Positions 49,090 through 49,877 of a DNA stretch of 64,000 nt are shown here, piece after piece. The stretch lies in the NCBI RefSeq assembly GCF_030384885.1, contig NZ_CP128613.1. One strand, 5' to 3'. The notes under the pieces were generated by a model. It was not told the DNA's origin. It searched no databases and saw only the letters and a program-made list of their open reading frames with translations. The first letter of the stretch is position 1, and every line of letters starts with the position of its first letter. A program made the position numbers and the translations under genes. The stretch comes from Escherichia coli. GTDB lineage: Bacteria; Pseudomonadota; Gammaproteobacteria; Enterobacterales; Enterobacteriaceae.

Positions 49090-49500
49090 CACATCCCGTG
49101 GCCCCCTGCATGGCTATAGCATGGAAAGCGGAAGAAAAAGCGCAATGAGGTCGTAGGACGAACGGTTCGGGGAAGGCTGAAGAGTACGTTTCTGGTCCTG
49201 AAGACCGGATAAACCTTCATCGGTCCAACGTTTAAGCCACTTGTAGCTAGTGGCAGGAGAAATGCCGTAGTGACGGACCCTGTAAATAATTCTGTGTAAC
49301 TGCCCACGATTAAAGGTGGCCGCTCAGGCGGTCACCGTATTCGATAATAAATTGTGTGATTCATAGACATCGTTTCAATTTTCTCAGCTCAAGTTCAAGC
49401 TGGTTATTCTGTTCCTGTATATGCTCCTCATTGGGCTGATAGTTTGCGTGAACGGCATCAGAGTATGGCGTTTTCTTAGCAAGTTCAAAGTAGCGCGCCA
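49090..49500 (-). mobile_element. Degenerate IS transposase (OrfA-like) remnant
   Basis: Minus-strand translation gives an HTH-like segment typical of IS3-family OrfA (HYGISPATSYKWLKRWTDEGLSGLQDQKRTLQPSP) and a short leucine-zipper-like ORF (MARYFELAKKTP...NNQLELELRKLK), in different frames with stops. No intact transposase or terminal inverted repeats identified. Confidence 0.45.
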
Positions 49501-49877
49501 TCGGAGTTATCAGCCACCCACAGCTGGTCAGGATGTTCTGCCACGAACTGACGATTCACACAGTCGCCTGCGGCAACGACTTTCCTGCTGACTGTAAACA
49601 GAACGACGGTCGGCGGTGAAATAACGGTCTTTGCCCTCACCTACGCCATGGCCCAGCGCCCGGCTCATGTCGTACATCACGTTAGTAGCCATCGCTTTCA
49701 CGCGGGCATCCATTGCGGCGTCGTTCAAAACCATACCTCCCCAGCCGCAAATACCGGGTAACCTGATACTTCACAATAAGATTGGTGCGTGGATGATAGA
49801 TTGCCAAATAATAATCCATCAAGAAATAATGACAACAAAAAACATCAAGCATTCCTAATGTTATTTGGCCATATAAA

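Follow-up and report, generated by a model that had tools for sequence, protein, structure and literature searches.

A mosaic of insertion-sequence and gene fragments at the right edge of a lineage-specific interval between dif and the F9 fimbrial operon of Escherichia coli

Results

The 64-kb stretch of DNA analysed here (the window) is part of the E. coli terminus region and carries, from left to right, an ECSE_1600-type autotransporter gene, hipBA, dif, a variable interval, an intact F9-type (ydeQRST-type) fimbrial operon, ydeP, safA and ydeO. The dif site is an exact 28-mer on the plus strand (43263–43290; 0 exact matches expected by chance), and its position relative to hipA is the same in K-12, N96 and 2017-02-2CC. 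This chromosomal dif forms the left limit of a lineage-specific interval that runs from 43291 to 49839. In typical E. coli, such as O55:H7 (CB9615) and K-12, the interval consists only of dif and a short yneL-type HTH pseudogene. The hipA-dif-yneL-ydeT region of K-12 is the same chromosomal locus, with hipBA, dif, a decayed interval and then F9-type fimbrial genes. In K-12, however, there is a short yneL pseudogene and the first half of the fimbrial operon is gone; in the window, the operon is complete, and 6.5 kb of lineage-specific DNA stand where K-12 has yneL.

In the left part of the interval, the two halves of an Xre-family gene lie 2.5 kb apart (C-terminal half to 44188, N-terminal half 46670–46815), with an LRR gene between them. 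Compared with an intact gene in ABWA45, the halves show 86% against 93% identity, which suggests that they had different histories. They are followed by a gene for a 654-residue ankyrin-repeat protein on the plus strand (47118–49082, stop codon 49080–49082) and by a 53-bp spacer (49083–49135) that matches none of the reference elements used. The spacer is kept in the genomes that carry the mosaic described below, except in 2013C-4282, where a deletion extends from within the ankyrin gene to about 49144. The mosaic itself, 49136–49773, forms the right-hand end of the 6.5 kb of lineage-specific DNA that separate dif from the F9 fimbrial operon. A further 66 bp (49774–49839), unassigned and common only to the 17 mosaic genomes and N96, lie between it and the upstream and promoter region of the operon on the plus strand (49840–50222), where sequence shared with most E. 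coli begins. The gene for the fimbrial major subunit follows at 50223–50786.

Six-frame translation, blastn against 5,426 complete E. coli genomes and alignment to reference copies resolved 49136–49773 into five abutting fragments with no filler between them, all with their sense on the minus strand: remnants of four different insertion sequences (ISs) and one piece of a hydrolase gene. The matches of the fragments are far above chance (E values of 5e-14 to 8e-59, blastn, 28 Gb of E. coli genomes). The initial annotation had placed IS debris between the ankyrin gene and the promoter of the fimbrial operon. This is borne out; the region does not align to conserved E. coli core sequence, and neither of the outcomes named in that annotation as a refutation occurs. 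The debris was parsed incompletely, however, as the IS256-family end (49276–49352) and the IS3-family piece (49509–49596) were missed, and the description of the remainder as frameshifted OrfA-like fragments is wrong. The two pieces concerned belong to the IS481 family, share only 35% amino acid identity and come from different elements. Together with their order on the coding strand, where a C terminus precedes an N terminus, this low identity also rules out a single frameshifted IS481 gene as their source; an IS256-family end separates them.

Fragment 1 (49136–49276, minus strand) is an interior piece of an IS481-family transposase gene, identified by Pfam, NCBIfam and nucleotide and amino acid identity, that covers residues 35–80 with the HTH region and lacks both gene ends. 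It encodes ...RHYGISPATSYKWLKRWTDEGLSGLQDQKRTLQPSPNRSSYDLIAL, and the HTH peptide ...RHYGISPATSYKWLKRWTDEGLSGLQDQ... reported in the initial annotation is present on the minus strand at 49275–49138. The peptide scores above the cut-off for Pfam HTH_29, HTH_28 and LZ_Tnp_IS481. Among NCBIfam families, transpos_IS481 scores best (E=1.4e-6), although the match is partial and does not come near the cut-off for a full-length protein. The fragment is 78% identical in amino acids and 87% in nucleotides to a 384-residue IS481-family protein encoded on an E. marmotae plasmid, and 63% and 74% identical, respectively, to YagA of ISEc19. Its membership of the IS481 family rests on the N-terminal HTH and leucine-zipper DNA-binding region; it contains no DDE (rve) core, terminal inverted repeats or target duplication and is flanked by unrelated sequence on both sides. 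Both ISEc19 (yagA) and the unnamed E. marmotae plasmid relative share the HTH and leucine-zipper region of residues 35–80 with fragment 1, but only 46 codons are left, and at 74% nucleotide identity the fragment is too diverged to be given the name ISEc19.

Fragment 2 (49277–49352, minus strand) derives from an ISEc39-related element of the IS256 family, of which the terminal ~77 bp remain; it was recognized by sequence identity and a shared terminus. It carries the last 15 transposase codons (ITQFIIEYGDRLSGHL, followed by the stop codon) and the IS terminus (GACCCTGTAAAT... / GACCCTGTAAATAATTCTGTGTAACTGCC), and on the outer side, at 49276/7, it finishes in a true IS end. Compared with ISEc39, the fragment is 88% identical in nucleotides, and the inverted repeat of ISEc39, which in locus L020 is flanked by an 8-bp target duplication, begins at the same GACCCTG base. 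Terminus and transposase C terminus are thus collinear with those of a known IS256-family member, and the ISEc39/IS1414 group shares with fragment 2 the terminus (GACCCTG...) and the C-terminal motif ...FIIE(F/Y)GDRLS.HL-stop. In contrast to ISEc39, only a 77-bp stub is left, and the stub is nearer to unnamed remnants in other strains (98.7–100%). One of these, at 98.7% identity, is longer and continues as IS256-type coding sequence. In K-12-type strains another remnant, of 77 bp, 100% identical to fragment 2 and broken at the same inner position, stands immediately 5' of the yjhR pseudogene, and its flanks differ on both sides. The proximity to yjhR does not make the piece a fragment of a yjhR-like gene, a possibility ruled out by the fact that the 77 bp themselves are an IS256-family end.

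Fragment 3 (49353–49508, minus strand) is the last 156 bp of an ISEc18-like element of the IS481 family, assigned by nucleotide and amino acid identity and by its right inverted repeat (IRR). It contains transposase residues 276–323, the stop codon and an intact 25-bp IRR, TGTGTGATTCATAGACATCGTTTCA, at 49353–49377. The leucine-zipper-like piece that had been taken for part of an OrfA, ...NEEHIQEQNNQLELELRKLKRCL with its stop codon (49507–49364), is in fact the last 48 codons of this transposase. The fragment is 93% identical in nucleotides to two full-length ISEc18-type plasmid copies of ~1,027 bp, the transposase C terminus is 90% identical over 48 residues, and the IRR matches both the left inverted repeat (IRL) and the IRR of the two copies at 25 of 25 positions. 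A scan of the 64-kb window that allowed up to 3 mismatches found this one occurrence of the repeat and no second ISEc18 repeat or IRL. Fragment 3 and ISEc18 thus have the last 156 bp, the C terminus, the 25-bp repeat and the AT-rich flank in common; most of the ISEc18 flanks that we examined are AT-rich, of the form (G/A)ATAAA(A/T). What differs is the extent: 156 of about 1,027 bp are left, cut at codon 276, with no intact transposase gene and no recoverable target duplication, and the HTH region, DDE core and IRL are gone.

The AT-rich flanks also account for a misleading similarity to SMS-3-5. An apparent overlap of 7–8 bp with that genome arises because (G/A)ATAAA(A/T) flanks stand beside most of the ISEc18 ends examined. 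In SMS-3-5, the ISEc18 remnant has another flank than in the window, and the 77 bp are themselves an IS256-family end, so that this genome does not carry a version of the present junction interrupted by an IS256 insertion with target duplication; nor is the 49352/3 junction taken to have pre-existed elsewhere.

Fragment 4 (49509–49596, minus strand) is an 88-bp interior piece of an orfB of the IS629/IS1203 type (IS3 family), identified by nucleotide and amino acid identity. It corresponds to orfB residues 107–135 at the start of the integrase core (...NRQFVAEHPDQLWVAD; ...SRKVVAAGDCVNRQFVAEHPDQLWVAD), is ~90% identical in nucleotides to IS3-family copies, IS1203 and IS629 among them, in thousands of records and 86% identical in amino acids, and gives a weak match to NCBIfam transpos_IS3. 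No other IS3-family (OrfA/OrfB-type) sequence is present, and the name OrfA-like had been given to a different piece. Only 29 orfB codons are left: compared with IS629 and IS1203, an interior scrap of orfB is shared, whereas the ends, orfA and the frameshift site are missing.

Fragment 5 (49597–49773, minus strand) is of non-IS origin and not part of a transposase. It is an interior piece of an alpha/beta-hydrolase gene, covering approximately residues 134–192 of 352 at 83% nucleotide and 79% amino acid identity. The reference is an intact hydrolase gene adjoining paoD in strain 100181, the 79% applying to residues 136–192. The ~58 of 352 residues include the GxCxG elbow region and do not make up a complete alpha/beta fold with a catalytic triad. 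The fragment continues to decay, with a 13-bp deletion in Z0117EC0005 and an internal premature stop in EC42405. PGAP lists it as a pseudogene, 'alpha/beta hydrolase, partial' (49597–49767).

The 68-residue open reading frame noted in the initial annotation (49528–49734, minus strand) exists, but it is not unidentifiable. Frame arithmetic and a blastx alignment show that it reads from the hydrolase piece through into fragment 4: its initial 46 codons follow the frame of the hydrolase fragment, after which the reading continues out of frame through fragment 4. The reading frame is a chance chimera.

PGAP had already annotated three of the five pieces as partial pseudogenes in RefSeq genomes, in every mosaic genome examined, fragments 1, 3 and 5 carrying the labels 'helix-turn-helix domain-containing protein', 'IS481 family transposase' and 'alpha/beta hydrolase', each partial. 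The IS256-family stub and the IS3-family scrap are left without annotation, the sole exception being a spurious reading frame of 51 residues in EC42405, where fragment 4 appears as a 'hypothetical protein'. The mosaic is ordinary and very probably inert debris of nested ISs and a gene, three pieces of which were already annotated in public genomes. In the literature on ISEc18, and on F9 fimbriae together with hipA and dif, we found no description of this locus.

The full arrangement occurs in 17 of the 5,426 complete E. coli genomes, with 97–100% sequence conservation among them, and the flanks of the 17 are 99–100% identical to each other. In the six carriers that were aligned (five genomes and the window), the junctions are identical, and the differences consist of SNPs, one 13-bp deletion and one premature stop. 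N96 aligns to 43261–44183 and again from 49596 onward, with flanks at 99% identity, and lacks the block in between, about 44186–49601: the LRR gene, the N-terminal Xre half, the ankyrin gene and IS fragments 1–4. It keeps the hydrolase piece, and its break ends within 0–5 bp of the IS1203/hydrolase joint. The N96 joint, CACAAAAAAGAACGACGG, is ambiguous within 44179–44185 on the left and 49596–49602 on the right, and the sequences at the two sides share only A-rich microhomology (AAAAAAG vs TAAACAG). At the two joints, the window keeps 3–4 more bases of Xre and hydrolase homology than N96. Because of these additional bases, we lean towards a microhomology-mediated deletion in N96, which would fit the joint sequences better than an insertion into an N96-like site.

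Homology to 5,010 of the 5,426 E. coli genomes resumes at 49840, at about 87% identity. The alignment with CB9615 begins at the same position, to the left of which CB9615 and K-12 diverge. Species-wide homology thus starts only at 49840, and the hydrolase piece and the 66 bp beyond it are therefore also lineage-specific. The initial annotation took the debris to mark the right edge of the accessory segment, and it does so at two levels: at 49596–49602 relative to N96 and at 49840 relative to ~5,000 E. coli genomes. The right limit of 49760 given in the initial annotation falls near the end of the hydrolase piece, but 80 bp short of the core boundary.

Discussion

The five fragments are very probably the non-functional residue of nested IS insertions followed by deletions, formed once and subject to drift since then. 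The junctions carry this reading. At 49276/7, the IS256-family end abuts approximately codon 35 of the ISEc19-related transposase gene, and at 49353 the ISEc18 IRR abuts the IS256-family transposase gene 15 codons short of its stop. In both cases, a genuine IS terminus stands against the interior of another element, which indicates nested insertion. The remaining three junctions, 49508/9 (ISEc18/IS1203), 49596/7 (IS1203/hydrolase) and ~49136, lie within unrelated genes, with microhomology of 0–2 nt; as they join interiors to interiors, they are deletion joints rather than insertion joints. From this arrangement we infer the order of events: an ISEc19-like element would have been struck by an IS256-like element, into which an ISEc18-like element then inserted. 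At least three later deletions would have stripped away every catalytic domain and every other IS end, joining what was left to the IS1203-type piece and the piece of the hydrolase gene. The mosaic would have arisen a single time, in the ancestor of the rare E. coli lineage represented by the 17 complete genomes, and then drifted. No intermediate form, such as an intact ISEc18 within an IS256-like element at this locus, was found.

Two observations fit less easily. A simple nested insertion leaves the yjhR-side 77-bp remnant, 100% identical and with the same inner break point, incompletely explained. A targeted insertion of ISEc18 at ...AATAAAT may be part of the explanation for this shared break point. 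In addition, the 5.4-kb effector block appears to have been lost from N96 almost as a discrete unit, and both end points of this presumed deletion fall only a few bp away from older junctions, a coincidence that a random deletion does not explain. If these junctions are preferred break points, the debris would reflect a specific process instead, for which terminus-associated illegitimate recombination or targeting of the 3' end of IS256-type elements by ISEc18 would be candidates. That the dif-adjacent interval is a recurrent landing and decay zone, and the debris the product of such a specific process rather than of random decay, nevertheless seems to us quite improbable.

But does the debris also record how the ankyrin and LRR genes arrived? 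The initial annotation held that it did, attributing to it the event that brought in the effector-like genes. This is unsupported, as no pair of inverted repeats and no target-site duplication brackets the block; the search for terminal repeats and target duplications around 43200–50300 returned only short pairs at chance level. Several features would agree with the fragments being scars of an IS-mediated insertion, either of a composite transposon or by IS-driven rearrangement, that delivered both genes. The debris sits exactly at the right end of the block that is missing from N96, debris and ankyrin gene occur together in 17 of 17 genomes and neither occurs elsewhere among the complete E. 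coli genomes, and both retained IS termini face the ankyrin gene, the geometry expected of a right-hand flanking IS. However, the 17 genomes have flanks 99–100% identical to each other, and if they form a single lineage the co-occurrence says nothing. Moreover, the fragment beside the ankyrin gene comes from the interior of its element and has no end, the left junction falls within the split Xre-family gene, and no matching IS sequence or inverted repeat is found at the left edge or elsewhere in the window. The block thus has neither the IS at its left edge nor the paired repeats and target-site duplication of a composite transposon or IS-bounded island, and we regard an IS-mediated delivery as unlikely. 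The interval 43291–49839 was also considered as an IMEX, and the window contains no second dif-like site: only the true dif at 43263 matched when agreement at 17 or more of the 22 positions in the XerC and XerD arms was required, a threshold at which degenerate sites, such as prophage hybrid sites, would be missed.

A broader alternative is that the whole interval, including the debris, is one diverged haplotype imported by homologous recombination in the flanks, with hipA/dif used on the left and ydeP on the right. The debris would then be a passenger assembled in the donor lineage. The divergence of the fimbrial operon is in line with this: the F9 operon at 49840–57000 is only 84–93% identical to K-12 and O55:H7 (CB9615), compared with 95–97% for the flanking hipBA and ydeP. 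In addition, the fimA-upstream allele is found at 95% identity or above in only 19 records (3 at 99% or above, 16 at 95–99%), a number matching the 17 mosaic genomes, N96 and one more. Yet fimbrial operons are often hypervariable for other reasons, the whole lineage may simply be divergent, and no donor was found, the ankyrin protein having no relative among 100,044 species-representative genomes. An import of this kind is possible, though we consider it doubtful. Formation by nested insertion and deletion remains our preferred reading of the mosaic. The debris marks the end of accessory DNA, but how the ankyrin and LRR genes came to be acquired is not recorded in it. For the origin of these candidate effectors, the divergent haplotype or the split Xre gene at the left edge is a better place to look.

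Judged from its sequence, nothing in the mosaic would be able to transpose or to encode a working protein, and no catalytic domain survives. A present-day function, for example as a small protein, as an sRNA or in the regulation of the fimbrial promoter, might be read from the 97–100% conservation over 17 genomes and from the enrichment of promoter-like hexamers in 48950–50300 (9 found vs 2.4 expected). However, the conservation is not above that of the flanks, and most of the promoter-like sites lie outside the debris, right of 49770 in the AT-rich region upstream of the fimbrial genes. The largest open reading frame is disrupted in other strains by the frameshifting 13-bp deletion and by a stop codon, fragments 1–4 are missing from N96, and an Rfam scan of 48900–50400 returned no family at E<=1. 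We therefore consider any such function highly improbable. On its own, the mosaic is of little importance; what changes is the reading of the locus. The small reading frames are not genes, the limits of the accessory block are now set, and the scraps reveal no mechanism by which the ankyrin and LRR genes might have moved.

Finally, the two sides of dif carry different kinds of additional DNA in the window. Two identical filamentous prophages, presumably integrated by XerCD, lie on one side; on the other are the effector-like genes, the split regulator gene, scraps of four kinds of IS and the hydrolase scrap.

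Insertion sequence remnants in the lineage-specific interval

The IS256-family terminal stub at 49277-49352 is a relic that occurs at dispersed sites. K-12-type strains carry an identical 77-bp copy 5' of yjhR (positions 2501-2577 of L007, a reference locus), and at ≥99% identity this copy is present in no fewer than 1,201 records. In other strains, a 60-bp copy with 92% identity sits directly after the stop codon of djlA (positions 2501-2560 of L018, a second such locus). The inner break point of the stub is identical in K-12 and in the window. Further to the left, between the LRR and ankyrin-repeat genes, the stretch 46845-46910 has ~83-85% identity to sequence found in ~2,400 genomes, where the counterparts lie under or beside IS110-family transposase annotations and often adjoin a zinc-ribbon gene; this stretch may be another IS-related scrap.

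A split regulator gene and its neighbors

An Xre-family HTH regulator gene on the minus strand is split into a C-terminal half (44056-44188) and an N-terminal half (46670-46815), separated by 2.5 kb with the LRR gene in the gap. ABWA45 has an intact version encoding 110 aa, compared with which ~55 bp (aa 50-66) are missing from the window, and identity to it is unequal between the two halves (86% versus 93%). The segment 44187-44621 matches DNA from the opposite side of the Xre gene in ABWA45, indicating that the segment order has been permuted.

Two further reading frames lie directly right of dif: a plus-strand 146-aa ORF (43296-43736) and, adjoining it, a minus-strand gene (43878-44072) for an orphan Xre/MbcA/ParS antitoxin of 64 aa that comprises the C-terminal toxin-binding domain only. 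No RES-type toxin gene is found beside the antitoxin gene, and the 146-aa ORF has no match in Pfam; annotations of the other strains treat the corresponding feature as a frameshifted pseudogene.

On the other side of dif, between hipA and dif, we observed two tandem copies of a filamentous (Inovirus-type) prophage (26111-43276) that are 100% identical to each other, with a period of 8,575 bp. The region encodes a replication protein, an ssDNA-binding protein, coat proteins, a Zot-like ATPase and a pIV secretin. At ~26113 and ~34688 the sequence has hybrid sites, GGTGCGCATAATGTCAACGCGTTATGTTGAAA, and the intact dif lies at 43263. The prophage is absent from this locus in 2017-02-2CC, 2013C-4282, N96, CB9615 and K-12, the other genomes examined there, and its sole similarity in the phage collection is to the pIV gene of the IKe and Erwinia PEar phages (~80% over 190 bp).

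LRR and ankyrin-repeat proteins

The LRR protein (44992-46425, minus strand, 477 aa) combines an IpaH/SspH-like N-terminal region with LPX-type leucine-rich repeats, encoded by eight copies of a 60-nt tandem unit. Its gene varies in length between strains, and the product has 519 residues in 2017-02-2CC and 568 in 2013C-4282. We detected no NEL ligase domain in the 477-aa protein; in strain 24A16CRGN010, its counterpart carries the annotation NEL-type E3 ubiquitin ligase domain protein.

Of 5,426 complete E. coli genomes, only 17 carry the gene for the 654-aa ankyrin-repeat protein (47118-49082, plus strand), at the same locus every time, and no relatives of the protein were found among 100,044 species-representative genomes. 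One carrier, 2013C-4282, has lost the 3' end of the gene through a deletion reaching window position ~49144.

The fimbrial operon and its upstream region

The F9-type fimbrial operon (49840-57000) is a divergent allele, with 84-93% identity to K-12 and O55:H7, whereas the flanking genes hipBA and ydeP reach 95-97%. At ≥95% identity, the allele of the upstream region is found in only 19 records. We also noted a motif, TTATTTGGC(C/G)ATATA(AAA), which occurs in two direct copies (49861-49875 and 49977-49991), each inside a 45-nt repeat (49834-49878 and 49950-49994), and in a third, inverted copy (49797-49811) just outside the core boundary. Located upstream of the fimbrial major-subunit gene, the motif may be a regulator-binding site.
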